DNA of 64,000 bases. It comes from Candidatus Eiseniibacteriota bacterium (GTDB taxonomy: Bacteria > Eisenbacteria > RBG-16-71-46 > JABDJR01). Made by a program: the position numbers and the translations under genes. This document shows, piece after piece, positions 43,650-63,285 of the stretch; positions within the stretch are counted from its first letter, which is position 1, and each line of letters opens with the position of its first letter. The stretch is taken from NCBI GenBank assembly GCA_963783375.1, contig CAWANH010000028.1:800001-864000 (forward strand), given 5' to 3'. The notes under the pieces are model-generated. The model had not been told where the DNA came from. It ran no database searches and saw only the letters and a program-made list of their open reading frames with translations.

Positions 43650-43816
43650 GGCCTAGTGTCCCGTCCCGGGAATCTCGTCACTCCTCCCGCCGGATCTCGG
43701 AGCCGCTGGCATCGTTGCTCCTCCTCCAAATACCCCCGGGTATTCGTCGTCGGAGCGCCTCCCCATCCGCTCCGATCTCTCGCCGGACCAGGACAACGAA
43801 CTCCCGGGACTGAACA

Positions 43817-45190: not shown

Positions 45191-45371
45191 CTTGGCCGAC
45201 AGTCTACCCGGTGAGCGGGGACCCGACCAGGAAAAAAGGTAACAGTGGGAAGATTTGACACGGGTGATTCCGGCTCCGAACTGCGGATGCGCCGCCCGCC
45301 GGAAGAGTTGCCTGTGTCATAACTACAACACCGCCTGGATGTTAGCAGGAAGTTGCTGGCGCTCGCCATGT

Positions 45372-45387
45372 CGGCACAAATATTGCA
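45372..45387 (+). promoter_or_regulatory. Sigma54 promoter upstream of the FHA gene
   Basis: CGGCACAAATATTGCA with correct GG/GC spacing; TGT-N10-ACA at 45315-45330. Confidence 0.6.
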
Positions 45388-45532
45388 AAATAAACTTGTA
45401 AGCGAGGCAAGCAACATTACGCCGCGCGCGCTGCGGCTTCGGCCGCCCCGTCCAGGCGCGCGCGGCGCTTCTTGCTTCACGGAAGAAATCCAAGACACCG
45501 CTGGGTGTTTGGCTTACCCAAGGAGGGATGGG

Positions 45533-46081
45533 ATGCCGACCGACACCCTACCCGTCATCTCGTATCCAGAGGTTACGTCCTCCGGTCCCGCACGTCCGGT
45601 TCCGGCTCCGATCTCCCCTGCCCCGGTCTTCAACGAGGAGGGCTGGCGCCGGGAGAACGCCCCCAGTCCCCCGTCCTACTGGCTGAAGCTCCGCGAAGGA
45701 AATTTCTGGGACCGGGGTCGGGTGTTCGAGCTTCCCGTCGGTCTGAACGAAGGCACCCTCGGGCGCTCCCTCTCCTGCCACTGGCGACTCAATGACGCCA
45801 CCGTCTCCCGGATCCACGCCGCCCTGGTGCGAAGGCCCCGCCGCGGGGTCTATCTCGTCGATCTGGCCAGCCGTAGGGGCACCTTCGTCAACGGCGAGCG
45901 GATTGCCGAGGAGACGCTCCTCATGGCCGGCGACCGCATTCGCCTCGGCGAGCACGTGGAGCTGGAGTTTCTGGAGGGCGCTCCCCCCCAGGAGACGGTT
46001 CGAGAGCGGTGGCTCCGCCGGGGATGGTGGGTGGCCTCCGGGCTGGCGGTGGTGGTGGCGGTCGGGTACTTCGTCTTCTGA
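45533..46081 (+). CDS. FHA domain protein with C-terminal TM
   Basis: LGR...VSRIHA...DL.S..GTFVNG...GDRIRLG; AGGAGG RBS. Confidence 0.88.
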   Translation: MPTDTLPVISYPEVTSSGPARPVPAPISPAPVFNEEGWRRENAPSPPSYWLKLREGNFWDRGRVFELPVGLNEGTLGRSLSCHWRLNDATVSRIHAALVRRPRRGVYLVDLASRRGTFVNGERIAEETLLMAGDRIRLGEHVELEFLEGAPPQETVRERWLRRGWWVASGLAVVVAVGYFVF

Positions 46082-46485: not shown

Positions 46486-47181
46486 ATGCGCATCGCGACG
46501 ATGGCGATCCTGATTCTGCTCGCGTTCGTGGCTCCGGCGGCGGTATCCGCCGCCACCCCCGCTCCCGGCACCTACACCACGATCACCGGGGATTTTCTGA
46601 ACGGCCGGGGTTCGGAATCCTGGCGAAACGCCCCCGACAACAAGTCGTGGGACCACGTCTTCAACAGCGAATCCTGGGACGGGAGCGCGCTCGGAACCGA
46701 GTGGTACACCCGTTGCGGGGTCGGCAACACCTCGGTGACCTCGGTCAGTCTGGACGCCAACGGCACCGGCAGCATCACCTACCAGACCGTCTACACGGGG
46801 GGGATCTTCTGGCTCTCCAAGAACGGGCCCTGGGGTGACGGGGTCAACGACCAAAGCGGCATTCTGAACCAGACCATGGAGAACACCACGGTTCAGATGG
46901 TGGATAGTGTCGCGGTGGCCGCGGTGTCCAACATCCACACCTCCGGCATCTTCGATTCCGGCTGTACCCTGACCTTCGCGATCGGAAATGGCAGCGGTCG
47001 CGGCGATACGGACCTGCTGGCCAAGCCGGCCGACTATCCCGACTTCCTGGACCTCGCCTGCGCGTCCGGGAACCGCGACCGGGGCAGCTGGGGGGATCTC
47101 CTCACCATCACCATGGAGATCGACTGCCCGACCCCGGTCGAACCCACGACCTGGGGAGCGGTCAAGGTCAGATACCAGTAG
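46486..47181 (+). CDS. Secreted protein with C-terminal TTWG tail
   Basis: Signal peptide; ends PTPVEPTTWGAVKVRYQ. Confidence 0.82.
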   Translation: MRIATMAILILLAFVAPAAVSAATPAPGTYTTITGDFLNGRGSESWRNAPDNKSWDHVFNSESWDGSALGTEWYTRCGVGNTSVTSVSLDANGTGSITYQTVYTGGIFWLSKNGPWGDGVNDQSGILNQTMENTTVQMVDSVAVAAVSNIHTSGIFDSGCTLTFAIGNGSGRGDTDLLAKPADYPDFLDLACASGNRDRGSWGDLLTITMEIDCPTPVEPTTWGAVKVRYQ

Positions 47182-47491
47182 GAAGGACCTTCGCCCCCGC
47201 GGTGATTCCAGCCCTCTCACCGCGGGACGGCGCAGTGAGTTGCGCGGAGAGAGGCAGACCTCCCCGCGTCCGGCCCGGCCGGGCGCGGGGCCTCCCCGCC
47301 GGCAAGGCCCTTCCGCTCTTCCCCGCCTTGCTCCGGCCTCCGCGCTCCAATGGAGGGCACATAGGACGGACCCGTCCGGACGTGCAGGAGCGACCCGGCA
47401 AACCGCCGGGCGTCGCCGGCACGTCCGCGGGTAGCCGACGGCCGAGCCCGGCCAGTGCCACGTCGGGCCTCGGCTTCGGAGGAGGATCGAG

Positions 47492-50400
47492 ATGAAGCGG
47501 CTCTCTTGGATTCCGGTGTTCGTACTGCTCGCGGCCATGTGTTTCGGCGCCGGTCTCGCACGACCCGCCGAGGCCACGGTATACCACCTGGTTGGAGGCG
47601 CACCCTACGCGGCCGCCTCGTTTGCCGAGCACGACAACTCCCAGGCTTACCTGGGATCCGGCGCCTGGTCGGAGACCTATCCCGCGGTGGGCGACGTATT
47701 CCAGATGTACATCAGCCCGGCCCAGTTCGGGACATCTTTCACGGTAGGTGATATCCAGAGCATCACCTACCACACCATCAACGGCGCGACCAATCCAAGC
47801 GACGTGGACTTCTATCTGAAGATCTACACCGAGCCGTACGTCGGCGGGGACGCGAGCTGGTACGGGAACCGGCTGAACGCCGAGCCGCTCTACTCCAACA
47901 GCTACGTGGGGCCCTCGGCTTGGGTCTGGAACACCTGGACCACGGACTCCGGGACGAACCAACTCACTTTCTTCGACTCCAATCACTGCGGCAACCTCGG
48001 CTTTTATGGGGGGGCCACCCTTCAGGACCTGACCGGTGGCTCGATCACCTGGTCCAGCTACGCGGGAGCGGGCGCGACGGCCGAGACCACTCCGATCGAC
48101 TACGCCAGCCAAGTGGTCAAGTATCTGAACTTCTCCACCGGCTCCGGCTGGGCGTCCTTCCACGGTTACATCGACGCCATCACCGTGGCCCTGACCAACG
48201 GGGACAGCTACGTCATCGACCTCGAGAGCACCACCGACCCGACGTACGTGGACGACGACTGGGCCGGAACCGCGCCGGGGGTCGAGGTCGCCTCCGGCAA
48301 GTTTTTCGGGTACAACGCCTTCGATAATATCCAGGACGGCATCGACTACGTTTCGGGGAGCACGGTGTACGTGGCTGCAGGCCACTATCCGATCAGCACC
48401 CCGATCGTCTGCAACATTCCGGTGGAGTTGAGTGGTCCGCAGGCCGGGGTCGACCCGCGGCCCTCGGCCGCCTCCAGCCGGACTCCCGGCGACACGCTGA
48501 GCGAGGCGGTGGTGGACGGGGGATACTCGACCGCGACGCTCCTCACCGTGGCCGCCGATGACGTGGTGATGGACGGTCTGGAGTTCACAAATGGGACGGG
48601 CGACCTCGTGGCCTCATCGGCCTCCGCCCCTATCAAGTATCGTACCCAGGTGCGGAACTGCATCATCCACGACTCCAGCGGCGACGAAGGGATGCAGCTC
48701 CGGAACGTCACCGACGGAACCGTCGAGCGGAACCTCGTCTACAACACCGCCGGCGATGGCATCAACATGTGCTGCGGGACCACCGGCTCGACGATCCAGG
48801 ACAACGAGGTTAGGGACATCGACAGCGACAACGGCGCCATCTACATGTACGAGACCACGAACATGCTCGTACAGCGGAACCTCGTCTACAACACCTCTCA
48901 GAACGACGGCATCAAGATGGGGGCTAAGGGAGGCGCCGACGCCGACTCCTCGGGCGGGCAGATCCTGGACAACGTGATTCACGACACCGATCAGGACGGA
49001 ATATCGATCTACACCAGCGACGTTGAGGTTTGCGGAAACGAGATCTACGGGAGCACCAGCGAAAACGGCGCCTTCTACGTCGCCTTCAACGTTGATAATG
49101 TCCAGGTCACCAAGAACCGCATTCACGACAACGGCTCCACTATGGATGCGAGGACCACCTACGGGATTCGGGTGGGCCGGGGTAGTTACCACCCGACCAA
49201 CGTGCTGATCCACGACAACGACGTCAAGGGCAACGAAGAGGGCCTTTTCAACAACAACGCCACCGGGCCGGCCCTGAACGCCGAGAGCAACTGGTGGGGA
49301 GACGCGAGCGGCCCGAGCGGCGACGGCTCCGGAACCGGCGACTCCATCACCGGCGGAAACGTCGATTTCACGCCCTGGCGCCTCATGGCCACCGGCGTGA
49401 CCGCCTGCTCCGGGAGCCCGGTGGACAACCCGGTGACGCCGGATCCGGCGGATTCGTGCCTGACCGCGGCGACGCCGTGCAACACGGTGAGCTTCGACAT
49501 CACCCGGTCCGAATGCGATTGGGATGCGTGCGTTCAGCGTGACCTTCCAGCTGAGCAGCGAGCTGGAGCTGTGCACGGGGAACCTGGGAGACATCGCGGA
49601 GGGGACGTACCTGAGCGGCGTCGGCGGCACGAACTTCCAGGTGCTGGACAACACCGGGGGATCCTACACGGTGGACGGTGCCATCCTGGGACTCCCCTGC
49701 GGGGCGACCGCCTCGACGGGGGCGCTGTTCACGGTGAACGTGACGAAGAGCGATTCGGCGTCGGCGGAGGATACGGGAACCATCACCGTGACCTCGGTGA
49801 CGTTCCGGGACTGCTAGAACGCTCCGATTCCCGGGATCGCCGGTGGAACGGGGACGCTGGACATCGACACGTCGGCGCCGGCGGCGATCGGCGACCTGGC
49901 GGCGACGCAGGAGAAGAGCGGGAACGGGTCGGACGGGACGACGAACATCGATCTGTCCTGGAGCGCGGTGACGGAGCCGGACGCGGACATGATCGAGATC
50001 TACCGCGCCGGCTTCGGTTACTATCCGGAGTACGACGACGCGGGCGGGTCGGTGCCGGCGACGCCGAGCTATCCGCCGTCGGGGGCGTGGACCCTGGCGG
50101 GGACGGTGGCGGCGACCGCGACGAGCTACTCGGACGAGCCGACGACGCGGGACTTCTGGTACTACATGGCGTTCGTGAAGGACCTGTGCGGGAACGTGTC
50201 GGCGGTGTCGAACCAGACGGGTGGGACGCTGAACTACCACCTGGGAGACGTGGCGCCGGCGGGGACGGGGAACAACGACTGGTCGAGCTGGCGGACATCT
50301 CGCTGATCTGGGCTTCGCACTACGGGATCAGCCTGAGCCCGGCCTCGGCGACGCGTTCAACTACCTGGACGTGGGCCCGACGACGGACTACAGCGTGGAC

Positions 50401-51165
50401 GCGCGTCCGACGACGGACAATCAGATCCAGTTCGAGGATCTGATCATGTTCGCGATCAACTACGGCCAGGTGTCGAAGCCGGGGATGCGTCCGGCGGGAG
50501 CGGAGAAGAACGCGGTGTCGCTGGAGATGCCGTCGGAGCTGGGCGGGACGTTCGAGGTGGGGATCGAAGCCTCGTCGGACGGAACGATCCAGGGGATGAC
50601 GCTACCGCTCCGTTGGAACGGGGAGGTGGTGGAGCCGATCGGGTTCACGGAAGGCGAGCTCGCGGGGCGTCAGGGCGGCCAGGTGCTGGTGCTGTCGCCG
50701 AAGCCGGGGACGGTGGACGCGGCGGTGTTCGGCTCGACGCTGAGAGGAAGCGGAGAGCTGGCGCGGGTGCGGTTCCACCGGATCGCCGCGGGAGACCCGG
50801 GGATCGGGTTCGGCGCGGTGGAGGCCCGGGACGGCCAGAACAAGAAGGTGGAGCTGGGGACGGAGACGGCGAAGCCGGGAGTGGCGTTGACCACGCGGCT
50901 CTTGCCGAGCGCTCCGAACCCGTTCCAGGCGTCGACCGGGATCCGGTTCGCCATGAAGGAGGCGGGCCCGGTGCAGGTGGACGTGTACGGTCTGGACGGC
51001 CGGCTGGTGCGGACGCTGTTGAACGGGACGCAGCCGGCGGGCGAGCGGACGGTGACCTGGGACGGCCGGGACAGCGCCGGCCGGGAGGTGGCGTCGGGAT
51101 CGTACGTGATCCGGTTCGTGACGCCGCAGAAGAGTGAATCGCAGCGGATCGTGCGGTTGAGGTAG
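47492..51165 (+). pseudogene. Large secreted beta-helix / cohesin-like / dockerin-like / FlgD-Ig protein, interrupted (pseudogene or consensus errors)
   Basis: Frameshift at about 49512, TAG at 49815-49817, frameshifts at about 50280 and 50345 relative to the intact paralog 52060-55575. Confidence 0.8.
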
Positions 51166-51210
51166 GTAGGAGGGCCCCGGGGCGGACTCGAGAGGAGACC
51201 CGTCCCGGGG
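49427..51210 (+). repeat. ~1.78-kb direct repeat, copy A
   Basis: Long near-identical stretches shared with 53839-55620, extending past the stop codon. Confidence 0.9.
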
Positions 51211-51321
51211 ACCCATCCCGGTTGGGGACCGCGCCGCGGCGCGCGGTCCCCACCTTTCCCTTGGTGCAGGTGGTCGATCCCAGTAGGACACACCCCCATC
51301 CAACGCTGAAGGAGAAGACCC

Positions 51322-51912
51322 ATGGCGAAGACAGTCGATCGGAATCTCTTGACTCGCCTCCTTCCATCCGTCCTCATGTTGTTGGTGATCTCGGTGTTCG
51401 TGGCGGCACGGCCCGCCTCCGCCGTCGATCTCACCTTCTCGTGCGACAGTCCAGGCTGTCTGTTCGTCAATACGGACACCCTCTCCGTATCGGTCGACAT
51501 CGATGCCGGCACCACCGATCTCCGGGGAGCGTCCCTATCCATCCTGTTCGACTCCGGCGCAGTCATGCCGGTGGCGGTGGAAGCGGGATCCTTGTGGGAC
51601 GACTCGAGCTGTTCGCCTTTCCTGTCCTGGCTGAATCCCGGTTCGCCCGATTCGGTGTACGCGGATCTCGGTGGTCTGGGTTGTTCCGTGGACGGGCCCG
51701 GCTCCATCCTCGTCATCAAGTTCACCTGCGTCAGCCCGTCTCCGGGTGTGCTGAGCTGTGGGACCAACTACCTTCGGAACTCGGCGAACACCGCCCTCCC
51801 CTATACCTGCACCCCGACGACGGTGCAGTGCGAGATTCCCACGGCGGCTGAAGCCACCACCTGGAGCCTGATCAAGGCCATGTACTCTTCGGAGGGCCAT
51901 TCGAGACAGTAG
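51322..51912 (+). CDS. Secreted single cohesin-like domain protein with TTW tail
   Basis: DTLSVSVDI...GASLSILFD...EAGSL...GPGSILVIKF; tail AEATTWSLIKAMYS. Confidence 0.75.
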   Translation: MAKTVDRNLLTRLLPSVLMLLVISVFVAARPASAVDLTFSCDSPGCLFVNTDTLSVSVDIDAGTTDLRGASLSILFDSGAVMPVAVEAGSLWDDSSCSPFLSWLNPGSPDSVYADLGGLGCSVDGPGSILVIKFTCVSPSPGVLSCGTNYLRNSANTALPYTCTPTTVQCEIPTAAEATTWSLIKAMYSSEGHSRQ

Positions 51913-52059
51913 AGAGAACGCTTCGAGCCGGGGCGGGTCCCTGCAGAAAGGTCGGCCCACGGCTCGCGTGAAGCTGGGTGCAGCGACGAGGGTTCCCCCA
52001 CCCTCCGGCAGGAGCCGACCCGGACGTTCAACAACCCCGGTCGGGGTGGAGGCAAGGCA

Positions 52060-55000
52060 ATGAAACACATCATCTCGGTCCTGGCGTTGGCCATCGTCCT
52101 TTCGGCGGTGCCGTCAGCCGTCCGGGCCCAGTTCGTGAACGAGGACGTCTCCGACGCGGCCATGGCGGCGGAGTTCTCGCACAACTACGACGGCACGAGC
52201 ACTCTTGATGCCGTCACCGATATTGCCGGGCCCGGGGTGCGTTTCCAGGCCTCTCCAACGGTGGGGAGCGGGTCGTGGAAGATCGGCATCTCGGACGATT
52301 ATCCCGTCTCGGGGACCTACGGGTTTCCCCAGAACGGGTCCGTTTCCGGCTGGGGCGACTGGTCGGGCTACACCGCCTACCAGCTTCACTTCCTGAACAA
52401 CGGGCCCGGGTGGGTGTACGCCAAGGTGTACTTCAACACCACTTCCTCGGGATATTACAACTCATCCGGCGGGATCTGGATCGCTCCCGGCGACGACGGC
52501 GTGGACACCATCTATCTGGTGGGAATTCCCTATCTGGACCAGATCTCGAACTTCGGCTTCGAGCTCTTCACCAACTACGGCACCGGGGCCTACGAGGCCA
52601 CCAGCTTCGACGTCACCGTGACCGCCGAGCCCATTCCCGCCACGAACGAAGTCTGGGTGGACGGCGCCTGGGCGGGGAGCAACCCGGGGCAGCCGGTGGG
52701 GGCCGGGCCCTACACCTACGGCTACAACGCTTTCGACACCATCCAGGATGGGATCGACAACGTCTCCGGAAGTATCGTGAACGTGGCCCCGGGAACCTAC
52801 GCCGGCGGCATCACCATCACGCATTCCGTCCAGATCCTGGGCTCCGGCGACGGGTCGAACCCCGGGGCCGACACCATCGTGAGCCTCCTGGCCGGGCAGA
52901 CCGGGTTCAACCTCCTGGCCGGAGGGAACTCGGCGGTGGACCGTCTGGAGATACGGGACCTGCGGGTCACCGGCGGAATTCGCGCGATCTACACCGACTC
53001 CGCCGTCGATTACCTGACCTTCGACAACCTCACCCTCACCGGCGCGTCCACCTACGGGATCGAGATCCACAACAGCGCGGTGGTGAATGACGTGGCGATG
53101 ACCGATTGCGACCTGGTCGGAAATGCCACCGCGATGCGGGTGCGCGGCCAGCTAGACGGGCTCGTCATGACCGATGGCCACCTGGACGGGAACACCAACG
53201 GTCTCTACTCGGTGGCGGGCGCTCCCTACATCTTCCGGAACGTCTCGGTGAGCGGCACCACCTTCGACAACAACTCCAACAAGGGTATGTATCTGGAAAT
53301 GCTGAGCGACGCCACGTTCGACGGGATCAGCGTGGCCTCGAGCGGGACCTCGGGGTCCTTCGCCGCGGGCATCGACATCAACCTGAAGGGATCGGCCTAC
53401 CAGAACATCGCCATCACCAACAGCTCGGTGACCGGGTGTGGGACCGGCGACCCGGTGAACGGGGTGGGCATCACGATCAAGGCCCGGGACGACGGATCCT
53501 ATGCGGGCACCCCCGCCACCCTCACCAACGTGGACCTGAGCGGATGCACGATCACCGGCAACCAGAACGGCCTCCGGTTCGGTGAGCCCGGCAAGAACAA
53601 CGCCGGCCCGACGGCCGTAGACGTGCACCAGTGCGACATCACCGGGAATCTGGGCACCGGTCTGGACAACCAGACCCTGGCCACGGATTCCGCGACCTGC
53701 AACTGGTGGGGAACGGTGCTGGGCCCGAACGATCCCCCGGCGAACATCTCCTCCGGGGACGCGGTGGCCGGGACCGTCACTTACTCCCCGTGGCTGGACG
53801 GGTCGATTTCGGGGACGCCGGCGTGCAACCAGACCGGGAACCCGGTGACGCCGGATCCGGAATCGACGTGCCTGACCGCGGCGACCCCCTGCAACACGGT
53901 GAGCTTCGACATCACCCGGACCGACGCGGCCGGGATGCGTGCGTTCAGCGTGACTTTCCAGCTGAGCAGCGAGCTGGAGCTGTGCACGGGAAGCCCGGGA
54001 GACATCGCGGAGGGGACGTACCTGAGCGGGGTCGGCGGAACGAACTTCCAGGTGCTGGACAACACCGGGGGGTCCTACACGGTGGACTGCGCGATCCTGG
54101 GACTTCCCTGCGGGGCGACGGCGGCGACCGGGACGCTGTTCACGGTGAACGTGAAGGCGAGCGGAACGGCGTCGTCGGAGGATACGGGAACCATCACCGT
54201 GACCTCGGTGACGTTCCGGGACTGCTCGAACGCTCCGATTCCCGGAACGGCGGGCGGTGTGGGAACGCTGGACATCGACACGTCGGCGCCGGCGGCGATC
54301 GGCGACCTGGCGGCGGTGCAGGTGAAGACGGGGAACGGCAGCGACGGGACGACGAACATCGATCTGTCCTGGAGCGCGGTGACGGAGCCGGACGCGGACG
54401 TGATCGAAATCTACCGCGCCGGCTATGGCGACTATCCGGAGTACGACGACGGCACGGGTACGGTGCCGGCCACGCCGAGCTATCCGCCGTCGGGGGCGTG
54501 GACGTACGTGGCGACGGTGGCGGCGACCGCCACGAGCTACTCGGATGAGCCGGCGACACGTGACTTCTGGTACTACACGGCGTTCGTGAAGGACCTGTGC
54601 GGGAACGTGTCGGGGGTGTCGAACCAGACGGGTGGGACGCTGAACTACCACCTGGGGGATGTGACGAACGGGTCGGTCAACGGCCAGGGCGACAACCTGG
54701 TCTCGTTGGCCGACATCTCTCACCTGGGCGCCAACTACGGGGCGACCTTGGTGTTCAACGACCCGTTCAACTACCTGGACGTGGGCCCGACGACGGACTA
54801 CAGCGTGGACGCGCGCCCGACCACGGACAATCAGCTCCAGTTCGAGGATCTGATTCTGTTCGCGATCAACTACGGGGCGGTGTCGAAGCCGGGGATGCGT
54901 CCGGCGGGATCGGAGAAGAACGCGGTGTCGCTGGAGATGCCGTCGGAGCTGGGTGGGACGTTCGAGGTGGGGATCGAAGCCTCGTCGGACGGAACGATCC

Positions 55001-55575
55001 AGGGGATGACGCTACCGCTCCGTTGGAACGGGGAGGTGGTGGAGCCGATCGGTTTCACGGAAGGCGAGTTCGCGGGACGTCAGGGGGGCCAGGTGCTGGT
55101 GCTGTCGCCGAAGCCGGGGACGGTGGACGCGGCGGTGTTCGGGTCGACGCTGAGGGGAAGCGGTGAGCTGGCGCGGGTGCGGTTCCACCGGATCGCGGCG
55201 GGGGACCCGGGGATCGGGTTCGGCGCGGTGGAGGCCCGGGACGGCCAGAACAAGAAGGTGGAGCTGGGAACGGCGACGGCGAAGCCGGGAGTGGCGTTGA
55301 CCACGCGGCTCCTGCCGAGCGCTCCGAACCCGTTCCAGGCGTCGACGGGGATCCGGTTCTCGTTGAAGGAGGCGGGCCACGTCCGGGTGGACATCTTCAG
55401 CACCGACGGCCGCTTGGTGCGGACGCTGATGGACGGCGGATTGCCGGCCGGAGAGCGGACGCTGACCTGGGACGGTCGCGACGGCGCCGGCCGGGAAGTG
55501 GCGTCGGGATCGTACGTGATCCGGTTCGTGACGCCGCAGAAGAGTGAATCGCAGCGGATCGTGCGGTTGAGGTAG
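52060..55575 (+). CDS. Secreted modular protein: CBM-like, beta-helix, cohesin-like, FN3-like, dockerin-like, cohesin-like, FlgD-Ig C-terminal domain
   Basis: Signal peptide; IQDGID.V..G.Y beta-helix cap; NWWG; ADISHLGANYG and EDLILFAINYG; PNPF...GRLVRTL...WDGRD..G..VASGSY. Confidence 0.82.
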   Translation: MKHIISVLALAIVLSAVPSAVRAQFVNEDVSDAAMAAEFSHNYDGTSTLDAVTDIAGPGVRFQASPTVGSGSWKIGISDDYPVSGTYGFPQNGSVSGWGDWSGYTAYQLHFLNNGPGWVYAKVYFNTTSSGYYNSSGGIWIAPGDDGVDTIYLVGIPYLDQISNFGFELFTNYGTGAYEATSFDVTVTAEPIPATNEVWVDGAWAGSNPGQPVGAGPYTYGYNAFDTIQDGIDNVSGSIVNVAPGTYAGGITITHSVQILGSGDGSNPGADTIVSLLAGQTGFNLLAGGNSAVDRLEIRDLRVTGGIRAIYTDSAVDYLTFDNLTLTGASTYGIEIHNSAVVNDVAMTDCDLVGNATAMRVRGQLDGLVMTDGHLDGNTNGLYSVAGAPYIFRNVSVSGTTFDNNSNKGMYLEMLSDATFDGISVASSGTSGSFAAGIDINLKGSAYQNIAITNSSVTGCGTGDPVNGVGITIKARDDGSYAGTPATLTNVDLSGCTITGNQNGLRFGEPGKNNAGPTAVDVHQCDITGNLGTGLDNQTLATDSATCNWWGTVLGPNDPPANISSGDAVAGTVTYSPWLDGSISGTPACNQTGNPVTPDPESTCLTAATPCNTVSFDITRTDAAGMRAFSVTFQLSSELELCTGSPGDIAEGTYLSGVGGTNFQVLDNTGGSYTVDCAILGLPCGATAATGTLFTVNVKASGTASSEDTGTITVTSVTFRDCSNAPIPGTAGGVGTLDIDTSAPAAIGDLAAVQVKTGNGSDGTTNIDLSWSAVTEPDADVIEIYRAGYGDYPEYDDGTGTVPATPSYPPSGAWTYVATVAATATSYSDEPATRDFWYYTAFVKDLCGNVSGVSNQTGGTLNYHLGDVTNGSVNGQGDNLVSLADISHLGANYGATLVFNDPFNYLDVGPTTDYSVDARPTTDNQLQFEDLILFAINYGAVSKPGMRPAGSEKNAVSLEMPSELGGTFEVGIEASSDGTIQGMTLPLRWNGEVVEPIGFTEGEFAGRQGGQVLVLSPKPGTVDAAVFGSTLRGSGELARVRFHRIAAGDPGIGFGAVEARDGQNKKVELGTATAKPGVALTTRLLPSAPNPFQASTGIRFSLKEAGHVRVDIFSTDGRLVRTLMDGGLPAGERTLTWDGRDGAGREVASGSYVIRFVTPQKSESQRIVRLR

Positions 55576-55620
55576 ATAGGAGGGCCCCGGGGCGGATCCG
55601 ATGTGAGACCCGTTCCGGGG
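53839..55620 (+). repeat. ~1.78-kb direct repeat, copy B
   Basis: Matches 49427-51210. Confidence 0.9.
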
Positions 55621-55772
55621 CCGGCCGCCGCCGCGGCGGCAAGGATTCCATCCGGAGGGGACCGTCTCGCCAAATCATGGGTGGCGGTGGAAGTCCTTCC
55701 GGGACGAAGTACTGACCATCCGGAGCGACAGGGGTTGCCCCGGTTTGATGGCCAGGGAGAGGAAGCACCAAG

Positions 55773-56417
55773 ATGAAGACCATACTCATAATCATGGCGG
55801 TCGGTCTGCTCGCGCTCGAGGCGCCGTCGGTCGCGCTGGCCGCCGATGCCAGCTCGGGGATCTCCGATGCGTGCCAGCTCCAGTGGGTCCGGGATCACCG
55901 GGATGGCCCCGGCACCCTCGCCGCGGGGTATCCCGTCCTCGCCTCCCCCGCGGGAGTGCGGTGGGTCGCCGACTCCCCGGGGTCCGGCTCCTGGGAGATC
56001 CAGATCGGGGACGCCTACGATACCCCGACCACCGGGGCGGGGATGTTGAGCTGCTACGGTTTCCCCACGTCGGCGACGCTCCTGGACTGGAGCGGCTATA
56101 CCAGCTTCAGCATGAAGTTCACGAACAACGATCCGGTCAACGGCTTCTCCGTCCAGCTCATCATCAACACCGGGGCGACGGCGAGCGGCGAAGTCAACAA
56201 CCTCTACTCGACCCCGCTGGAAGCGGTGGCTCCCGGGGGGGCGCACTCCCTCACCCTGTCCCTGGCCGGCGTGGCCAACCTGAACCACGTCTCCAACGTC
56301 TCCTTCAAGCTGGTCGCCGACACGGATCAGATCGACGTCAGGGTGGAGCCCGAGTTGCCCCCGGTTCCGACCGAGCCGACGACCTGGGGGGTGCTGAAGA
56401 GCCGGTACACGAACTGA
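55773..56417 (+). CDS. Secreted CBM-like domain protein with TTWG tail
   Basis: Paralog of the 58070 N-terminus; ends PTEPTTWGVLKSRYTN. Confidence 0.82.
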   Translation: MKTILIIMAVGLLALEAPSVALAADASSGISDACQLQWVRDHRDGPGTLAAGYPVLASPAGVRWVADSPGSGSWEIQIGDAYDTPTTGAGMLSCYGFPTSATLLDWSGYTSFSMKFTNNDPVNGFSVQLIINTGATASGEVNNLYSTPLEAVAPGGAHSLTLSLAGVANLNHVSNVSFKLVADTDQIDVRVEPELPPVPTEPTTWGVLKSRYTN

Positions 56418-56465
56418 TGAAGGCGTCGACGGGCCGTCCGATGGTCCGCTCGAGCCGGAAAGAGG

Positions 56466-57986
56466 ATGGGTGATGGGGACCGGTCCGGCGCCGGACCGGT
56501 CCCCCACCGACCCATGACGGAACTGCGGTGCGCCGGCCGGAAGCGGATACCGGTCCGGCCGGCGCCGGTCTTCCTCATTGTGGCCCTGTTGACCGTCCTC
56601 GGGGCCCCCGGCTGGGCCGGGGCCTCGGGCACCGCCGTGGATGTGATCCCGGCGCCGGGCCCGGTGGCCCGTTCGGTGGCGGTGGGGACCTGGCACCTCC
56701 TCACCACGGGGGACTGGGCCTTCCAACCGTCCGAACCCATCACCCACCTGGAGGTGGCGATCTATGACAGCGCCACGACCCTGGAGCGCGGGTCGGGCCC
56801 CTTCCCGTTCTCGACGAGGCGGAATTCCGGACCCGGTGTGGACGGACCGGAGGATGCTTCAGGCGACCTGGGCTGCGAATCCACCCCGGGCGTGCTCTGC
56901 GACAGTAACCAGAAGCTGTTCGGAAAGCCGCACTACGAGTCGTTGCGCCTCTATGGCGGCAGTCTCTCCGCCGGTTCCGGATATTCCCTGGGCTTCAGCG
57001 GGCCGGTTCCCTCCCAGGTCTGGATCCATCCGATGCGACCCGACTACTTCACGATGTCCACCACCGTGCTCCAGAGCGGCGAGGCCAAGCTTCAGACCGC
57101 GGCCTACGGGCCGGCCACGGTCACGCGGGTGCTGAGCGGCTCGGAGACCCGCTTCGTCTACAGCGGTCTCACCGACCAGTCCGCCACCGGGGTCAAGGAC
57201 GACTACCCGGTTCAGAGCTACGGGCAGCGGCCCGGTTCCCACGGTAACGGCGACTTCGGCTGGTTCTCCGGCTACTCGCTCCGGTTCACCAACGAAGGGC
57301 CGGACCCGATCCACGTGAACCTGTTCATGAACACCGGCTTCACCGGGGTGAGCGGAAACCCGACCTCCACCCTGGCCAACGACACCTTCTGGAAGGGGAG
57401 CGAGATCTACCTGACCCCCGGGAATTCGGGTCTGGCCTGGCTGGATTTCGACGACGTCACCGGTTGGACCCTGTCCGACAACCCCGTTCCCCACACCGGA
57501 GGCGGGGAGTCGTGGCCGGAGGGAACCTCGGGGATCGCGATCAACGTGTTCGACCGCCTCCAGGTGAGCGCGATCGGCTGGGAGGTCCGGCTGGCCCGCG
57601 CCGGCACCGGGTCGGCGACCCTCCTGGTCGCCCCGGAGGCCTCCGACCGCTACGCCGTGCCTCCGGTACAGGTCGGGATCGGCGCGGACCTCGGGAGCCG
57701 CGCCCCAGGGTTCTACCCTCCCCGGCCCAACCCCTTTCACACGACGACCCGGATCCCCTTCGCCCTCCCCGGCCCGGCGCCGGCGCGGGCCGTGATCCGG
57801 GTGTTCGACCCGGCGGGACGACTGGTCCGCGTCCTGCTCGACGAAGTGATTTCCCCCGGTCCCGGCTCCGTCTCCTGGGACGGCCGGGGCGACGATGCGA
57901 TGCCGCTTGCCGCGGGGGTCTACTACCTGCGGATGGATGTCACCGGACGTCCCGCGGCGCGCCGCGCGGTGATTCTGCTCGATTGA
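56466..57986 (+). CDS. Secreted protein with CBM-like domain and FlgD-Ig C-terminal domain (start may be about 56514)
   Basis: Hydrophobic signal; FSGYSLRFTN...NLFMNTG; PNPF...GRLVR.L...WDGR. Confidence 0.75.
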   Translation: MGDGDRSGAGPVPHRPMTELRCAGRKRIPVRPAPVFLIVALLTVLGAPGWAGASGTAVDVIPAPGPVARSVAVGTWHLLTTGDWAFQPSEPITHLEVAIYDSATTLERGSGPFPFSTRRNSGPGVDGPEDASGDLGCESTPGVLCDSNQKLFGKPHYESLRLYGGSLSAGSGYSLGFSGPVPSQVWIHPMRPDYFTMSTTVLQSGEAKLQTAAYGPATVTRVLSGSETRFVYSGLTDQSATGVKDDYPVQSYGQRPGSHGNGDFGWFSGYSLRFTNEGPDPIHVNLFMNTGFTGVSGNPTSTLANDTFWKGSEIYLTPGNSGLAWLDFDDVTGWTLSDNPVPHTGGGESWPEGTSGIAINVFDRLQVSAIGWEVRLARAGTGSATLLVAPEASDRYAVPPVQVGIGADLGSRAPGFYPPRPNPFHTTTRIPFALPGPAPARAVIRVFDPAGRLVRVLLDEVISPGPGSVSWDGRGDDAMPLAAGVYYLRMDVTGRPAARRAVILLD

Positions 57987-58069
57987 CCCAGGGTCCGATC
58001 GCGGGCGCCCGGCTACCCCATGGCCGGGGCGCTTAGGTCGAACTCGTTGCTTCTCACCCGAGAAGGAGT

Positions 58070-60439
58070 TTGGAAATGAAGAACAAGACCCTTTTCTTCG
58101 TCGGCGTACTTCTGGCCGCGGTATTCGTCGGGTCGGCCCTCGCCGACGACGCGGCCCTGGGAATCGGCGACGGCTGTCAGATGCAGTGGATCCGGGACTT
58201 CCGCGACGGGCCCGGGCTTATTGACGCCGGTTATCCCGTGGACGTTCCCGGTCCCGGCGTGCAGTGGCAGGTGTCCCCTCCCGGCGGAGTCATGTCCGGC
58301 GATTTCTGGGACATCCAGATCGGCGACGCCTACGACACGCCGTCCACCGGGTCCGGGCTCCTGACCTGCTACGGGTTCCCGGTGACCTCGGGGTTCGCGA
58401 ACTGGACCGGGTTCGACACCTACTCCATGACCTTCCACAACAACAGCGCCACCGACTGGTTCATGGCCGACGTGGTCATCAACACCGGATGGACCAATCT
58501 CCCCTACAGCGAGCCGGACAACGCCTACGCGGCTGGATGGACCTGGGTGCCGCCGGGCGAGTCGCGCACCGTGGTCCTGGACCTGGTCGCCGCCTCGGCG
58601 GTGAACCTCAACCACGTCTCCAACGTCTCGATCAAGCTGGGCACCAATTACGGCACCGGGCCCTACGAGGGGACCCACATCGACGTGACCGTGAACCCCC
58701 CCGACAACGTGACCCCCGATCCCAGCGGGCTCTGCATCTCCACCGTGACCCCCTGCGTCACGGTGCCGGTCGATCTCGTCCGTTCGGACGTCAACGACGC
58801 CCGCGGCGCCAGCGTGACCTTCCAGCTCAGCCCGGAGCTGGAGCTCTGTGACTCGACCCCCGCCAACAGCATCCACCAGGGCACCTGGTTGAACGGGTAC
58901 TTTACCCAGTTCCAGGTCGTCGACAACGGGGGCGGCTCCTACACCGTGGACCAGGCCATCTTCGGGATGCCCTGCGGGGTCACGACCGGAGGCCAGCTCT
59001 TCACGGTGGACGTGAAGGCCAGCGGGACGGCGGCGGCCGACGACGAGGGAACCATCACCGTGACCCAGGTCCTGGTCCGGGATTGCGGGAACGCCCCCCT
59101 GCCCGGCGTGCCGGGGAACCCCGCGACGGTGACCATCGACCGGACCGCGCCCACCCCCATCGCCAGCCTGGCCGCGAGCCAGGTCAAGACCGGCAACGAC
59201 ACCGACGGGACGACCAAGATCATGGTGGGCTGGCCGCCGGTGGAAGCCGGGGCCACGGTGGCGGTGTACCGCAAGGGCTTCGGGTTCTACCCCGAGTACG
59301 ACGACAACGGCGGGACGGCGCCCACCGCCCCGGCCACCCCGGCCGCCGCTCCGGGGGCGGGCTGGACGCTGACCCCGGTCACCACGTCGCCTTCGGCCGA
59401 TGAGCCCGCGGTTCGCGATTTCTGGTACTACGTGGCCTTCGTCACCGATGCCTGCGGAAACGTCTCGGGGCCGTCCAACCTCACCGGCGGGACGCTGGAC
59501 TATCACCTGGGCGACGTCAGCAACGGCGCGTCCCCGGGGACCGGGAACAACTCGGTGGGCCTGGAGGACATCTCCATCCTCGGGGCCAACTACGGGATCT
59601 CCCTGGCTTCGAACGATCCCGTCAACTACCTGGACGTGGGACCCACTTCCGACAACAGCGTCGACGGGCTCCCCGACACCGACAACCAGGTGCAGTTCGA
59701 GGACCTGATCCTGTTCGCGATCAACTTCGGCGCGGTCGGAAAGCCGGGGCTCCACGCCGCCGACGCGGGGGTGACCCGCTTGACCCTCTCCGTCTCCGAC
59801 GTTCCCTCCCCGGGATCGTTCTTCGACGCCGTCATCGGGGCCAAGGCGGGTGGAGAAGTTCAGGGGATCTCGGTGCCCTTGCGCTGGAATCCCGAGGTCG
59901 TGGAGCCGGTCTCCTTCGAGGCCGGCGACCTGGCCGATCTCCAGAGCGGCCGCACGCTGGTGCTGTCGCCGAAAGCCGGGACGGTCGACGCCGCGGTGTT
60001 CGGGGGAACCTTCCGCGGCGAGGGCGCTCTGGCCTCGGTTCGCTTCCGGGTGAAGGCCCCCGGCGACCCGGGCATCGCCTTCGGGGACGTCCTGGCCCGG
60101 GATCCCGCCAACCGGCCGGTGGAAGTTGCGCTGGGACGGGGGGGCATGGACGTCGTGCCGGCGGGGACCCGCCTCCTCCCCGCCTCTCCCAACCCGTTCC
60201 TCGGCGCGGTGGGGATCCGCTTCGCCCTGGCCGAGGACGCTCCGGTGCGGGTGGACGTTTACGCCTTGGACGGCCGCCTGGTCCGCCGGTTGGTGGATGC
60301 GCGACTCCCCGCCGGGGAGCGGACCGTGAACTGGGACGGCCGGGACGGATCGGGCCGGGCGACCGCGTCCGGGTCCTATCTGATCCGGTTCAGCACTCCC
60401 GGGACCGTTCAGACCCAGAAGGTGATTCGCATGAGATAA
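58070..60439 (+). CDS. Secreted modular protein: CBM-like, cohesin-like, FN3-like, dockerin-like, cohesin-like, FlgD-Ig
   Basis: Same C-terminal cassette as 52060 without the beta-helix; start probably ATG 58076. Confidence 0.82.
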   Translation: MEMKNKTLFFVGVLLAAVFVGSALADDAALGIGDGCQMQWIRDFRDGPGLIDAGYPVDVPGPGVQWQVSPPGGVMSGDFWDIQIGDAYDTPSTGSGLLTCYGFPVTSGFANWTGFDTYSMTFHNNSATDWFMADVVINTGWTNLPYSEPDNAYAAGWTWVPPGESRTVVLDLVAASAVNLNHVSNVSIKLGTNYGTGPYEGTHIDVTVNPPDNVTPDPSGLCISTVTPCVTVPVDLVRSDVNDARGASVTFQLSPELELCDSTPANSIHQGTWLNGYFTQFQVVDNGGGSYTVDQAIFGMPCGVTTGGQLFTVDVKASGTAAADDEGTITVTQVLVRDCGNAPLPGVPGNPATVTIDRTAPTPIASLAASQVKTGNDTDGTTKIMVGWPPVEAGATVAVYRKGFGFYPEYDDNGGTAPTAPATPAAAPGAGWTLTPVTTSPSADEPAVRDFWYYVAFVTDACGNVSGPSNLTGGTLDYHLGDVSNGASPGTGNNSVGLEDISILGANYGISLASNDPVNYLDVGPTSDNSVDGLPDTDNQVQFEDLILFAINFGAVGKPGLHAADAGVTRLTLSVSDVPSPGSFFDAVIGAKAGGEVQGISVPLRWNPEVVEPVSFEAGDLADLQSGRTLVLSPKAGTVDAAVFGGTFRGEGALASVRFRVKAPGDPGIAFGDVLARDPANRPVEVALGRGGMDVVPAGTRLLPASPNPFLGAVGIRFALAEDAPVRVDVYALDGRLVRRLVDARLPAGERTVNWDGRDGSGRATASGSYLIRFSTPGTVQTQKVIRMR

Positions 60440-60456
60440 TCTTCATCTGGGATTCG

Positions 60457-60490
60457 AGGGGGCGGGATCCGGCGGCGGATCCCGCTCTCC
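60457..60490. terminator. GC-rich hairpin after the 58070 gene
   Basis: GCGGGATCC...GGATCCCGC inverted repeat; no clear U tract. Confidence 0.35.
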
Positions 60491-60626
60491 CGGGACCCGT
60501 TCCCCTCGGAAGGCCGGCGGAGGCCTCGGACGGCCGGTCCCGCGACCGGCTCCGGAAAGGATCTGCACCACGCGCACCGCAAACCGACGATTCATCACCA
60601 CCGCTCTCGGCGTTCTCCCGGCCGCC

Positions 60627-62252
60627 GTGCTGGCGATCGGGAACGCGGGGGGAGAGCCGGGCAGGATCACCGCCGGCAGCTCGAGCGCGCTCTCCCTTCC
60701 CGGCATGGTCTCGGTCAAGGACGGCGATTTTCTCGCGGACGGTCAATCGATCCACTTCGCCGGCACGAACTGCTACTACCTCATGGTTTTCGCCGCCGAC
60801 CCGGCGCTTCGCCCCCAGGTGGACGAGGTTCTCGAGGAGTCGGCGGCCATGGGCCTCACGGTGATCCGCACCTGGGCTTTCAACGACGGAACCGGCTGGA
60901 ACGCTCTTCAGACCGCGCCGGGGGTCTACGACGAGACCGTGTTCCAGGGGCTGGATTACGTGCTCGACCGGTGCGACCGGCTCGGGCTTCGGGTCGTGCT
61001 TCCCCTGGTCAACAACTGGGTCGACTACGGGGGCATGGACCAGTACGTGGCATGGAGTTCCACCGCGGCCTACCACGACGCCTTCTATACGGACTCCGAC
61101 TGCCGAACCTGGTACCTGAACCACGCCGCGGCGGTCATCAACCGGGTGAACACCGTGAACGGCCGCCTCTATCGCGACGATCCCACCGTCTTCGCCTGGG
61201 AGCTGGCCAACGAGCCGCGCTGCCCCTCGGACCGGAGCGGGACCACGCTGGCCACGTGGATCGCGGACATGAGCGCCTCGATCCGGGCTCTGGACCCCAA
61301 CCACCTCATCACCAGCGGCGTCGAGGGGTTCTACGACGATCCCTCCGGCCCCTGGTACCTGAACGGCTGGGAAGGGGTCGATTTTGTGAGGGACCACCAG
61401 GCTCCGGACATCGATTACGCGGTGGCCCACAGCTGGCCGGACAACTGGGGCTTGGGGTTCTCCGCGGTCATGGCCCTCGTCTCCCGGCAGATCGGGGACG
61501 CGGCCGGCGTGCTGGGAAAACCCTTCGTGTTGGAGGAATTCGGCAAGGCTCGTGACGCCGCGTCTCCGGCGGCCGTGAACCACTTCGACCCGAACACCTG
61601 GTTCTCCCCGGAAGTGGAGCCCTACACGGTGCGTGGCGCGGCCCCGGTCCGGGTGGATCCGGCCCGGCGGGCCCGGCTCTACACCTCCGGCGATCGTCCC
61701 GGGTCCGGGGCTCGCCTCCCGGAGGCTCCGGTTAGGGTATCCTCGTCCACGTCGACCCGGGACGCCTTCTTCTCCGCGTGGTTCGACAGTCTGCTCGCCA
61801 ACCGCTCCGGGGGGTCCACCTACTGGATCGCCTACGACGACGCCTATCCCGACTACGACGGATACGGGGTCTACTATCCGGCCGACTCCTCCACGGTGAG
61901 CCTGATCGAGGCCCACGCCCAGGCCATGGCGGCGCTCACCGAGAGCACCGGAATCCTGGACCCCGACCGGCCGGGGCCCCGCCGTCTCGCGGGCTATCCG
62001 AACCCCTTCCGGCGGTCGGTCAATCTGGCTTTCGATCTCGCGGAAGGGGAGGGAGAGGTTCGTATAGACGTGATCGACGTGGCGGGACGTCGACTGCGCA
62101 CCCTGATCGACGGCCCGGTCGGCCCGGGACCGCTGGTGATCGCCTGGGACGGAAGTACGGATTCCGGGGGGAGGGCCGCGGCCGGAGTCTATCTGGTTCG
62201 TCTCCGGACCTCCCGGGAATCCACGGCCACTCGTGTCGTGCTGACCCGCTGA
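60627..62252 (+). CDS. GH5 glycoside hydrolase (beta-mannanase-like) with FlgD-Ig C-terminal domain
   Basis: GTNCYY, IRTWAF, NNW.DYGGMDQY, WELANEPR (acid/base), LEEFG (nucleophile). Confidence 0.88.
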   Translation: MLAIGNAGGEPGRITAGSSSALSLPGMVSVKDGDFLADGQSIHFAGTNCYYLMVFAADPALRPQVDEVLEESAAMGLTVIRTWAFNDGTGWNALQTAPGVYDETVFQGLDYVLDRCDRLGLRVVLPLVNNWVDYGGMDQYVAWSSTAAYHDAFYTDSDCRTWYLNHAAAVINRVNTVNGRLYRDDPTVFAWELANEPRCPSDRSGTTLATWIADMSASIRALDPNHLITSGVEGFYDDPSGPWYLNGWEGVDFVRDHQAPDIDYAVAHSWPDNWGLGFSAVMALVSRQIGDAAGVLGKPFVLEEFGKARDAASPAAVNHFDPNTWFSPEVEPYTVRGAAPVRVDPARRARLYTSGDRPGSGARLPEAPVRVSSSTSTRDAFFSAWFDSLLANRSGGSTYWIAYDDAYPDYDGYGVYYPADSSTVSLIEAHAQAMAALTESTGILDPDRPGPRRLAGYPNPFRRSVNLAFDLAEGEGEVRIDVIDVAGRRLRTLIDGPVGPGPLVIAWDGSTDSGGRAAAGVYLVRLRTSRESTATRVVLTR

Positions 62253-62297
62253 CCACGGGGAGAAAACCGAGCTTTGAACTCGAAAATGAGGCCAACC

Positions 62298-63122
62298 ATG
62301 AAAAGACACAACATCAAGCCTCCTGGTCTTCGGAACATCCTTGCGCTGGGTCTTCTCCTGATCGGCGCCCCCGCCTTCGGTCAGGGCATTCACGTGGATC
62401 TGCTTCCCGCTGCACCGACGGTCAGCCAGGGGGATACCTTCGATCTCGAGATGACGGTGGCCGCTCCCAGCGACAGCTTCAACGCGTTCGATGCCACCCT
62501 CACCTTCGACGACAGCCTCCTGACCTTCATCCCCCTGAGCACATCCGTGCGCGAGGGGCCGCTCATGACGTCCGCGTGCTCGAACCGCTTTCGTATCTTC
62601 AGCCAGCAGGGAGGCGACATCAGCCTCACCCTCGGTCTCTTGTGCGCCGGCGTGAAGGTGGCCGGTCCGGGGGTGATCTTCCGGTTCCGCTTCCAGGCGG
62701 CGGTGCCCGGTCCGGTGCAAACCGCGGTCAGAATCACCTCGCTGCGGTTCGCCGACGCCGGTATCTACGTGAACCCGGTGACCTCCAGCGATGCGACGGT
62801 GACCATCGGAAGCACGACCGGATTGCCGGACGGGGGATATCCCGTTCGCCCGGAGCTCCGTGCGGCCCCCAACCCCTTCCGGACTGCTACGGAGATCGTC
62901 TTCACTCCCCGGGTCGACGGTCCGGTGCGGATCGAGATCTTCGCGGTGGACGGGCGGAGGGTCCGCACCCTTCTCGATGGGCCGGCGCTCGCGGGTACCG
63001 AGGTGCGGGCCGCATGGGACGGTCGTTCAGATGGGGGGGCTGCCGCTCCGGCCGGGGTCTACTTCGCCTCGGTCGCGAGTCCGGAGGGGCGCTCGGCCGC
63101 CCGGGTAGTGCTCCTGCGTTGA
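62298..63122 (+). CDS. Secreted cohesin-like domain plus FlgD-Ig C-terminal domain
   Basis: VSQGDTFDLEMTV...AFDATLTFD...EGPLM...GPGVIFRFRFQA; PNPF...WDGR. Confidence 0.8.
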   Translation: MKRHNIKPPGLRNILALGLLLIGAPAFGQGIHVDLLPAAPTVSQGDTFDLEMTVAAPSDSFNAFDATLTFDDSLLTFIPLSTSVREGPLMTSACSNRFRIFSQQGGDISLTLGLLCAGVKVAGPGVIFRFRFQAAVPGPVQTAVRITSLRFADAGIYVNPVTSSDATVTIGSTTGLPDGGYPVRPELRAAPNPFRTATEIVFTPRVDGPVRIEIFAVDGRRVRTLLDGPALAGTEVRAAWDGRSDGGAAAPAGVYFASVASPEGRSAARVVLLR

Positions 63123-63217: not shown

Positions 63218-63241
63218 TACAAGTGTAAAATTAGAAGTGTT
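63218..63241. promoter_or_regulatory. BlaI/MecI/CopY-type operator
   Basis: TACA-AG-TGTA at 63218-63227 and degenerate TAGA-AG-TGTT at 63232-63241. Confidence 0.7.
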
Positions 63242-63285
63242 TGAACCTTTATCCCCTCGGTTTCGTCCTTAACAGCGGAAGACCC

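Follow-up and report, generated by a model that had tools for sequence, protein, structure and literature searches.

The described systems that come closest to the TTWG tail, a 16-residue peptide at or near the C-terminus of unrelated exported proteins in a Candidatus Eiseniibacteriota bacterium (phylum Eisenbacteria), are type IX secretion system (T9SS) sorting signals and the short C-terminal motifs of the PEP-CTERM/exosortase, GlyGly-CTERM/rhombosortase and LPXTG/sortase pairs. The DNA considered here is a 64,000-nucleotide stretch of this genome (the window; GenBank assembly GCA_963783375.1, contig CAWANH010000028.1, positions 800,001 to 864,000), in which neighbouring genes for secreted proteins end either in the tail or in an FlgD-Ig domain. 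To our knowledge, descriptions of the T9SS restrict it to the FCB group. Its type A C-terminal domain (CTD; TIGR04183 and PF18962, and here PF13860), which operates with SprA, PorV and PorU, is a seven-stranded β-sandwich. The short CTDs of Prevotella intermedia measure 43–55 residues (PMC11969387), type B and type C CTDs also exist (PMC12618676, PMC10202324), and one translocon takes these several signal classes by means of different barrel shuttles (for background, PMC11969387, PMC11285876, PMC12618676 and PMC10202324).

The tail resembles the type A CTD in being modular, C-terminal and attached to unrelated Sec-exported proteins; the two occur in the same genomes and on the same passengers, share a similar linker word of the form T-small-V, and adjoin one another in fusions from Poribacteria. 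In contrast to a CTD, a β-domain that has conserved motifs and measures 43 residues or more, the tail comprises 16 residues, predicted as a linker and a seven-residue helix without motifs B, D and E; moreover, it can be repeated or N-terminal, it has Pro after the would-be cleavage site, and it is found on lipoproteins and on a transmembrane-tethered protein. The short, type B and type C CTDs are β-domains three or more times longer than the tail, and none resembles it. PEP-CTERM, GlyGly-CTERM and LPXTG signals are likewise short C-terminal motifs on many unrelated exported proteins, including choice-of-anchor passengers, but they are defined by a transmembrane helix and a basic cluster, whereas the most hydrophobic 17-residue stretch within the last 40 residues of the tail proteins has a median hydropathy of 0.50 and a maximum of 1.54, which indicates no transmembrane segment; a basic cluster is likewise missing from the tail. 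An earlier sequence-only reading of the window had set the tail apart from PEP-CTERM and LPXTG on the same ground. Because the defining features of both groups are missing, the tail is a member neither of T9SS CTD types A–C nor of the PEP-CTERM-like signals, although its behaviour is that of a signal for sorting or docking. None of the Pfam and NCBIfam models covers the tail in the three window proteins and 56 others, and a literature search, with most subscription papers and supplements outside its reach, found no description of the motif; the tail is real and, as far as searched, undescribed.

We tentatively favour the reading that the tail serves as a portable label for docking, which some part of the T9SS-like export apparatus of these phyla would bind and read from the periplasm. 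A T9SS-linked reader is preferred because of the position of the tail in the fusions, the shared linker word, the paralogues in which tail and CTD are exchanged and the choice-of-anchor passengers, all of which are described below. The suggestion of the sequence-only reading that the tail is a second export or anchoring signal is partly supported, and a second signal for export or docking is still the best interpretation, the tail being modular and found on signal-peptide proteins; no dedicated peptidase or translocon was found to go with it.

The tail in the window and across the genome

Three window genes, all on the forward strand, carry a TTWG-type tail, as had been claimed. The first (46486..47181) encodes a protein of 231 residues with a signal peptide and an all-β body outside known families; its tail, stop codon included, lies at 47131..47181 with the Trp codon at 47152, and the gene begins upstream of position 47128, from which the feature had been counted. 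The second (51322..51912, 196 residues) joins a signal peptide to a cohesin-like body that remains under the Pfam cut-off. Its TTWS tail is present at 51841..51888, but seven further residues follow KAMYS and the tail is therefore not, as had been supposed, the very end of the protein. The third (55773..56417) has a signal peptide and a galactose-binding-like body (PF21253, under cut-off); its TTWG tail, stop codon included, occupies 56364..56417, and one contig of public run X3 spans this tail without differences.

In the genome, which comprises 4.73 Mb and 3776 called genes, the tail follows the consensus [VT]-P-[VT]-E-x-[TS]-[TS]-W-[GS]-x-[ILV]-K-x-x-Y. The strict regular expression proposed with the sequence-only reading gave 49 matches in six frames, 47 of them at most 10 residues from a stop, and it occurred in the last 20 residues of 44 of the 3776 called genes, against 0.005 in shuffled sequences and 0.07 expected from the internal rate. 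The predicted enrichment of the motif at the C-termini of signal-peptide proteins is confirmed genome-wide, and a chance origin of the tail was rejected on these counts. A position-specific scoring matrix (PSSM) recovered 70 copies at C-termini plus two internal copies, and the scores show a gap from 35 to 26; at a score of at least 24, 70 of the 72 copies lie within 21 residues of the stop. At E ≤ 0.1, an independent profile search gave 71 matches, of which one is marginal.

When each key position was masked in turn, Lys was found in 68 of 68 copies, Gly or Ser in 68 of 68, Trp in 67 of 69 and Tyr or Phe in 66 of 68. The proteome has a K/(K+R) ratio of 0.24, Arg being about three times as frequent as Lys, yet the tail Lys is never replaced by Arg, which is common at the neighbouring positions of the PSSM. 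The tail of the 46486 protein is kept in 52 of 52 other homologues, and Trp and Lys are invariant among the 53 homologues of this set (34–75% identity). The strict Lys in an Arg-rich proteome and the invariant Trp and Lys support specific recognition of the tail. In two paralogues elsewhere in the source genome (G000 C29:1503410-1503844 and C29:962097-963194) the tail Trp is replaced, by Arg and Phe, and Gly and Lys are kept.

The same strictness could be accounted for by a covalent lysine acceptor, with a transpeptidase, PorU-like C25 or other, joining the tail to cargo or to an envelope polymer. The lysines of pilins and of Braun's lipoprotein serve as covalent acceptors, and the pilin-motif Lys of sortase substrates and the Lys of Braun's lipoprotein, the latter attached by an L,D-transpeptidase, share with the tail an invariant Lys near the C-terminus; beyond this no resemblance in sequence was seen, no comparison aimed at one having been made. 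C25 peptidases are available, with six in this genome and 3–9 in each of five other genomes. However, a binding pocket would account for a strict Lys equally well, and the reaction fits poorly with a tail placed ahead of a cleavable CTD. L,D-transpeptidases (PF03734, YkuD), of which the source genome has three copies, were not found in four of five genomes searched (G061, G070, G073 and G055), three of them rich in tails; the YkuD enzyme that a signal of the Braun's lipoprotein type would need in every carrier genome was thus not found in all of them, and peptidoglycan anchoring is therefore weakened. We regard a covalent acceptor as improbable.

In an AlphaFold2 model of the 46486 protein, an extended linker connects the β-rich body to a helix of seven residues (223–229; pLDDT 84–88). 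A Foldseek search of this model against the PDB gave no match at E ≤ 0.001, and an ESM Atlas search with the tail alone gave no usable match. The mean hydrophobic moment of the tail is 0.30 at 100° compared with 0.39 at 170°, and the net charge from Trp to the end is about +1.8. The tail had been described as a short amphipathic helix with no transmembrane segment; the lack of such a segment and the predicted helix agree with this description, whereas strong amphipathicity does not follow from the moments. An in-plane amphipathic helix by which proteins adhere to a membrane or to lipopolysaccharide with no protein reader would suit the aromatic Trp and Tyr, the positive charge, the predicted helix and the tandem repeats described below. 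Nevertheless, the helix spans only about seven residues with a low hydrophobic moment, lipid anchors do not normally fix Lys over Arg or Gly/Ser at one site, and lipoprotein carriers are already anchored, so that direct lipid binding is very improbable.

Carrier proteins and their passengers

Of the 70 copies, eight lack a usable start and two merely repeat others where contigs overlap, which leaves 60 distinct full-length genes. These fall into 37 BLAST families. The proposal that the tail is a structural part of one domain was rejected, as the 37 families are unrelated and an extended linker parts the tail from the folded body in the model. By a crude hydropathy rule, a signal peptide is present in 54 of 70 tail open reading frames (ORFs) and 77 of 125 CTD ORFs, compared with 36% of 2211 other ORFs; by eye, 58 of the 60 distinct genes have a signal-peptide-like start, with ten starts set by hand. 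The tail genes are short (median 224 residues for 65 called genes, against 677 residues for 115 called CTD genes). Another tail gene lies within two genes in 19 of 65 cases (background 5%) and a CTD gene in 11 of 65 (background 10%). Tail genes are also present on two viral contigs (L215 and L216), GC-rich and phage-like, and in one case the passenger is LamG-like as judged by eye; a third viral match (L214) was discarded as chance.

For nine of the 60 tail passengers, a CTD protein encoded in the same genome contains a paralogue. One such exchange had been noted in the window, between the third tail protein and an exported protein of 789 residues (58070..60439, forward strand) with a type A domain at about 60164–60439; the body of the former and the N-terminal domain of the latter are indeed paralogous, with 45% identity over 208 columns (E = 4e-50). 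A second exchange, of a cohesin-like passenger between the second tail protein and the protein encoded at 62298..63122 (forward strand; scanned from a start at 62274), which has an FlgD-Ig domain at about 62844–63122, is weaker than had been thought: both match Pfam Cohesin only under the cut-off, and they align over 22 residues (E = 0.002). NCBIfam choice-of-anchor models (X, X, E, V and W) are passed by five of 56 tail passengers, and one of the 56 scanned matches the PEP-CTERM protein PepA under the cut-off. Choice-of-anchor domains take various surface-sorting tails.

The sequence-only reading had stated that tail and FlgD-Ig domain never occur in one protein. This holds in the source genome, in which none of 127 FlgD-Ig ORFs carries a tail and a search for weak tails before CTDs found none, but it fails in Poribacteria-type genomes, where, in seven proteins from five of nine genomes, a complete type A domain follows immediately on the tail; in one example, a complete A-V-E-P...T-T-W-G-x-V-K stands ahead of the N-Y-P-N-P-F strand. 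The same pattern gave no such fusion in 20 other genomes. Exclusion within a genome is partly trivial, both elements being terminal. In a model of the fusion built on a seven-row alignment, the tail is predicted to be disordered and not packed on the Ig fold, and would therefore be free to bind another partner.

Other carriers depart further from a simple terminal signal. There are four tandem copies in P0001, two in P0023, and one N-terminal and one C-terminal copy in P0026. In L011, an N-terminal copy just after the signal peptide is kept in three of three homologues. The L011 protein (G000:C28:1279424-1280092), for which two other homologues were found, has a hydrophobic, Cys-rich C-terminal part and no Pfam match. 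In a lipoprotein family of Eisenbacteria, Krumholzibacteria and Latescibacteria, a loose regular expression with at least one false call detects the tail in 33 of 60 closed ORFs; one member has four tandem copies, and none of the four members from family f5 has the tail. These lipoprotein tails often lack the P/T-V-E linker and keep the W-G-x-I/L-K core. Finally, the tail is found in five of five family-f1 homologues, and in none of 15 others (several from tail-rich genomes), of a protein whose gene follows that of an ECF sigma factor and which has a soluble segment at its N-terminus and a single hydrophobic stretch (residues 68–95). Gene order and topology suggest that this transmembrane-tethered protein is an anti-sigma factor. 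At its locus (G000:C28:1952954-1954739; L022 and L194) the sigma and anti-sigma-like genes overlap and lie downstream of exbB-exbD-exbD-tonB-like genes, as judged by eye. The anti-sigma-like gene has two starts (residues 1 and 59), each behind a strong Shine–Dalgarno-like sequence, and the Met at the second recurs in homologues; a shorter form may arise from this start, ahead of the hydrophobic stretch.

Together, these carriers show that the tail is portable and can be tethered or repeated. A cleaved signal that is strictly terminal and has a sortase of its own, PEP-CTERM-like minus the membrane helix, would agree with the location of nearly all copies close to the stop and with passengers that are the same as those of PEP-CTERM proteins. 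It would also agree with a protein library clustered at 50% identity, which gave 1260 matches at E ≤ 0.001: among the best 150 of these, 142 are C-terminal by regular expression and five are C-terminal variants that it missed, with two internal and one false. However, the Pro after the would-be cut and the tandem, N-terminal and pre-CTD copies do not suit such a signal, and the flanks (1.5 kb) of 80 tail loci contain no candidate peptidase; there, no dedicated peptidase or translocon and no recurring neighbour was found except CTD proteins (8 of 80), exosortase not having been among the searches. A dedicated sortase is thus very improbable. Because tandem, N-terminal, lipoprotein and tethered copies occur, the behaviour of the tail is that of a portable peptide for docking and not of a strictly terminal cleaved signal.

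Secretion machinery, distribution and a possible reader

By its profile matches, the FlgD-Ig domain of this genome is a T9SS type A sorting domain, which the sequence-only reading did not recognize, nor did it recognize the T9SS-like machinery in the genome. TIGR04183 reaches its cut-off of 23 bits in four of the six window domains (29.9, 28, 26.6 and 23.6), the others scoring 20 and 12.9, and of the 127 FlgD-Ig ORFs given by an iterated profile, 125 have the domain at the C-terminus. The genome further encodes SprA (432.8 bits, cut-off 200), six PorV-family proteins over the cut-off, six C25 peptidases and a nearly full-length PorU-like protein (best match 376.7 bits, cut-off 420) whose gene lies directly before a PorV gene. 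The named homologues of this PorV come from Candidatus Eisenbacteria, which suggests the placement of the genome. GldN, the only member of the PorK/L/M/N set that was searched for, was found in none of five genomes, and no control genome gave a match. Eight PorV-family barrel genes directly follow a CTD-bearing gene (G000 C29:826400, C29:141221, C28:1984550, C28:1483229, C28:160506, C28:153136, C3:40308 and C3:264590); the pairs resemble those that type B cargo forms with its cognate shuttles in Flavobacterium, and one barrel is fused to an OmpA-like domain, as judged by eye. Three PEP-CTERM-like proteins (G000 C28:184375, C28:906672 and C28:1422463) are also present, and three kinds of C-terminal signal coexist.

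In the phylum of the source genome, 58 of 61 genomes contain the tail, with 0–78 copies each. It extends to Krumholzibacteria (Krumholzibacteriia), Latescibacteria (Latescibacterota) and Poribacteria, and to a further small phylum with the tail in nine of nine genomes. A pattern scan of species genomes gave at least 121 matches; the 80 listed came from Eisenbacteria, Krumholzibacteriia, Latescibacterota, Poribacteria and many unnamed bacteria, and none of these 80 was named as Bacteroidota, of which no genome was searched directly. Five Poribacteria-type genomes contain 59–134 copies, some of these counts being lower bounds, of a variant with a longer spacer, which the Eisenbacteria profile misses (none of eight named genomes) and a separate profile detects. 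The tail was found in none of 40 further genomes, taken as controls, from the phylum of a Polyangiaceae genome that lacks SprA. Single tails in a Polyangiaceae and a Phycisphaera genome lie on contigs of 2.2 and 4.1 kb and are probably due to misbinning.

SprA exceeds the cut-off in 32 of 32 genomes in which one profile survey counted at least three tails. In eight of nine Poribacteria-type genomes there is an SprA-like ORF that is full-length but divergent, in every case under the cut-off; in G061–G067 and G093 the SprA-like protein measures 2155–2332 residues, and 16–17 PorV-family matches and three C25 peptidases were seen in two genomes that were checked. The genomes with tail and SprA are kin and overlap with the phylum sample. 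As they were reached through the tail, and as nearly every genome tested of these phyla has SprA, the co-occurrence is not independent; it is compatibility, not proof.

If a T9SS-linked component reads the tail, the linker would present a two-turn helix after Sec export, with Trp, Ile/Leu, Lys and Tyr on one face (i, i+3, i+4 and i+7), and an envelope protein would bind this face from the periplasmic side and bring the passenger to the translocon. On small single-domain passengers the tail would replace the 80-residue type A domain, and some large passengers of Poribacteria would bear both. Since tandem and N-terminal copies would add avidity, the tail probably requires neither cleavage nor a free C-terminus. 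The linker favours a T9SS-linked reader: by a loose regular expression, T-[GA]-V precedes the type A domain in 65 of 111 cases, compared with a background of 16%, and a similar word was matched at the start of 38 of 70 tails. The T9SS cleavage consensus in P. intermedia is PT/GI (PMC11969387).

Several observations weigh against a T9SS-linked reader. Pro follows the would-be cut in 60 of 70 tails here and in 66 of 110 elsewhere, whereas a small residue is reported to be preferred after the T9SS cut (PMC11969387); PorU cleavage has been called sequence-independent (PMC4804311), and the T9SS signals described in PMC11969387 and PMC10202324 are all β-domains of at least 43 residues. The tail also occurs on lipoproteins and on the tethered anti-sigma-like protein, which cannot pass the translocon whole. 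Across genomes, the number of tails is independent of that of CTDs. One Poribacteria draft (G068), its completeness not being given, has 69 tails and no SprA match; conversely, the 13 genomes of family f5 have SprA (eight of eight tested) and from 43 to at least 75 FlgD-Ig matches, yet only 0–4 tails, and the T9SS therefore does not need the tail. No reader emerged from the neighbourhoods of the 80 loci or from the PorV family, whose genes sit behind CTD genes rather than tail genes and whose quick tree (41 rows from four genomes, with weak support) contains no clade specific to tail-rich genomes. A predicted complex of the PorU-adjacent PorV with the tail scored 0.00 with an uncertain partner fold, which is evidence neither way.

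Much of this would be expected if the tail were a T9SS-independent docking tag for an abundant periplasmic, outer-membrane or surface-layer scaffold, similar to a minimal dockerin or SLH module. Such a tag would permit all of the tandem, N-terminal, lipoprotein and tethered carriers, would let tail and CTD counts vary separately, and would agree with the retention of the core when the linker is dropped in lipoproteins and with the presence of a lipobox in three of 60 tail proteins (by eye) but in none of 125 CTD proteins (strict regular expression). On the other hand, it leaves unexplained why a tail should stand between the would-be sortase site and a type A domain, where both would be cut off; passengers of surface-protein type would need another exit route, and the 80 loci showed no recurring partner gene other than those for CTD proteins. 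A scaffold tag is possible and is the chief alternative, though we consider it less likely than the T9SS-linked docking label.

In a stronger form of the preferred reading, which is rather doubtful, the tail would add to the T9SS signals a fourth class, helical and shorter than any known, which a motor-less T9SS of non-Bacteroidota phyla reads from the periplasm, allowing the translocon to handle small domains and lipoproteins; in one family it would have been grafted onto an ECF anti-sigma factor as a bait that reports on the export machine.

The window cluster and the meaning of the tail

The cluster comprises nine genes from 46486 to 63122, taking 47492–51165 as one gene, with the tail in three and an FlgD-Ig domain in six; the claim that every gene of the cluster has one ending or the other is therefore borne out. 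The remaining four genes, all on the forward strand, have FlgD-Ig or type A endings. The gene at 47492..51165 encodes a β-helix protein with a C-terminal FlgD-Ig/T9SS type A domain at about 50890–51165, paralogous to the β-helix protein of 1171 residues at 52060..55575, whose type A domain lies at about 55300–55575 (PF13860, 37 bits; TIGR04183, 28 bits, cut-off 23). The former is interrupted by frameshifts near 49510 and at 50250–50345. The break near 50277–50348 is likely an assembly error, because the letters at these positions are missing in contigs from three of four public sequencing runs, although those contigs could derive from the paralogue. Several other tail genes elsewhere in the genome also look frameshifted. 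An exported protein at 56466..57986 has an FlgD-Ig domain at about 57702–57986 (PF13860, 36 bits; TIGR04183 under the cut-off), and a GH5 glycoside hydrolase at 60627..62252 was assigned a type A domain at about 61974–62252 by the Pfam and NCBIfam scan.

Just upstream of the cluster, 45353–46081 encodes an FHA-domain protein (PF00498) with a C-terminal hydrophobic segment, which adjoins a pair made up, as judged by eye, of a sensor kinase and a sigma-54-type response regulator (41781–45190). At the other end, 63241–64000 presumably encodes a BlaI/MecI-like repressor and, after it, a membrane protein similar to BlaR1.

In conclusion, across several uncultured phyla the tail marks 1–2% of genes (here, 70 copies against 3776 called genes), and as no database model exists for it, it offers a way to annotate hypothetical proteins by the thousand as cargo of the envelope. 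If the tail is read by the T9SS, the notion of a T9SS signal would be widened from a folded β-domain to a 16-residue peptide, which would provide a minimal handle on the recruitment of cargo to SprA in lineages in which the PorN ring was not detected; if another protein reads it, the tail would point to an undescribed envelope scaffold.

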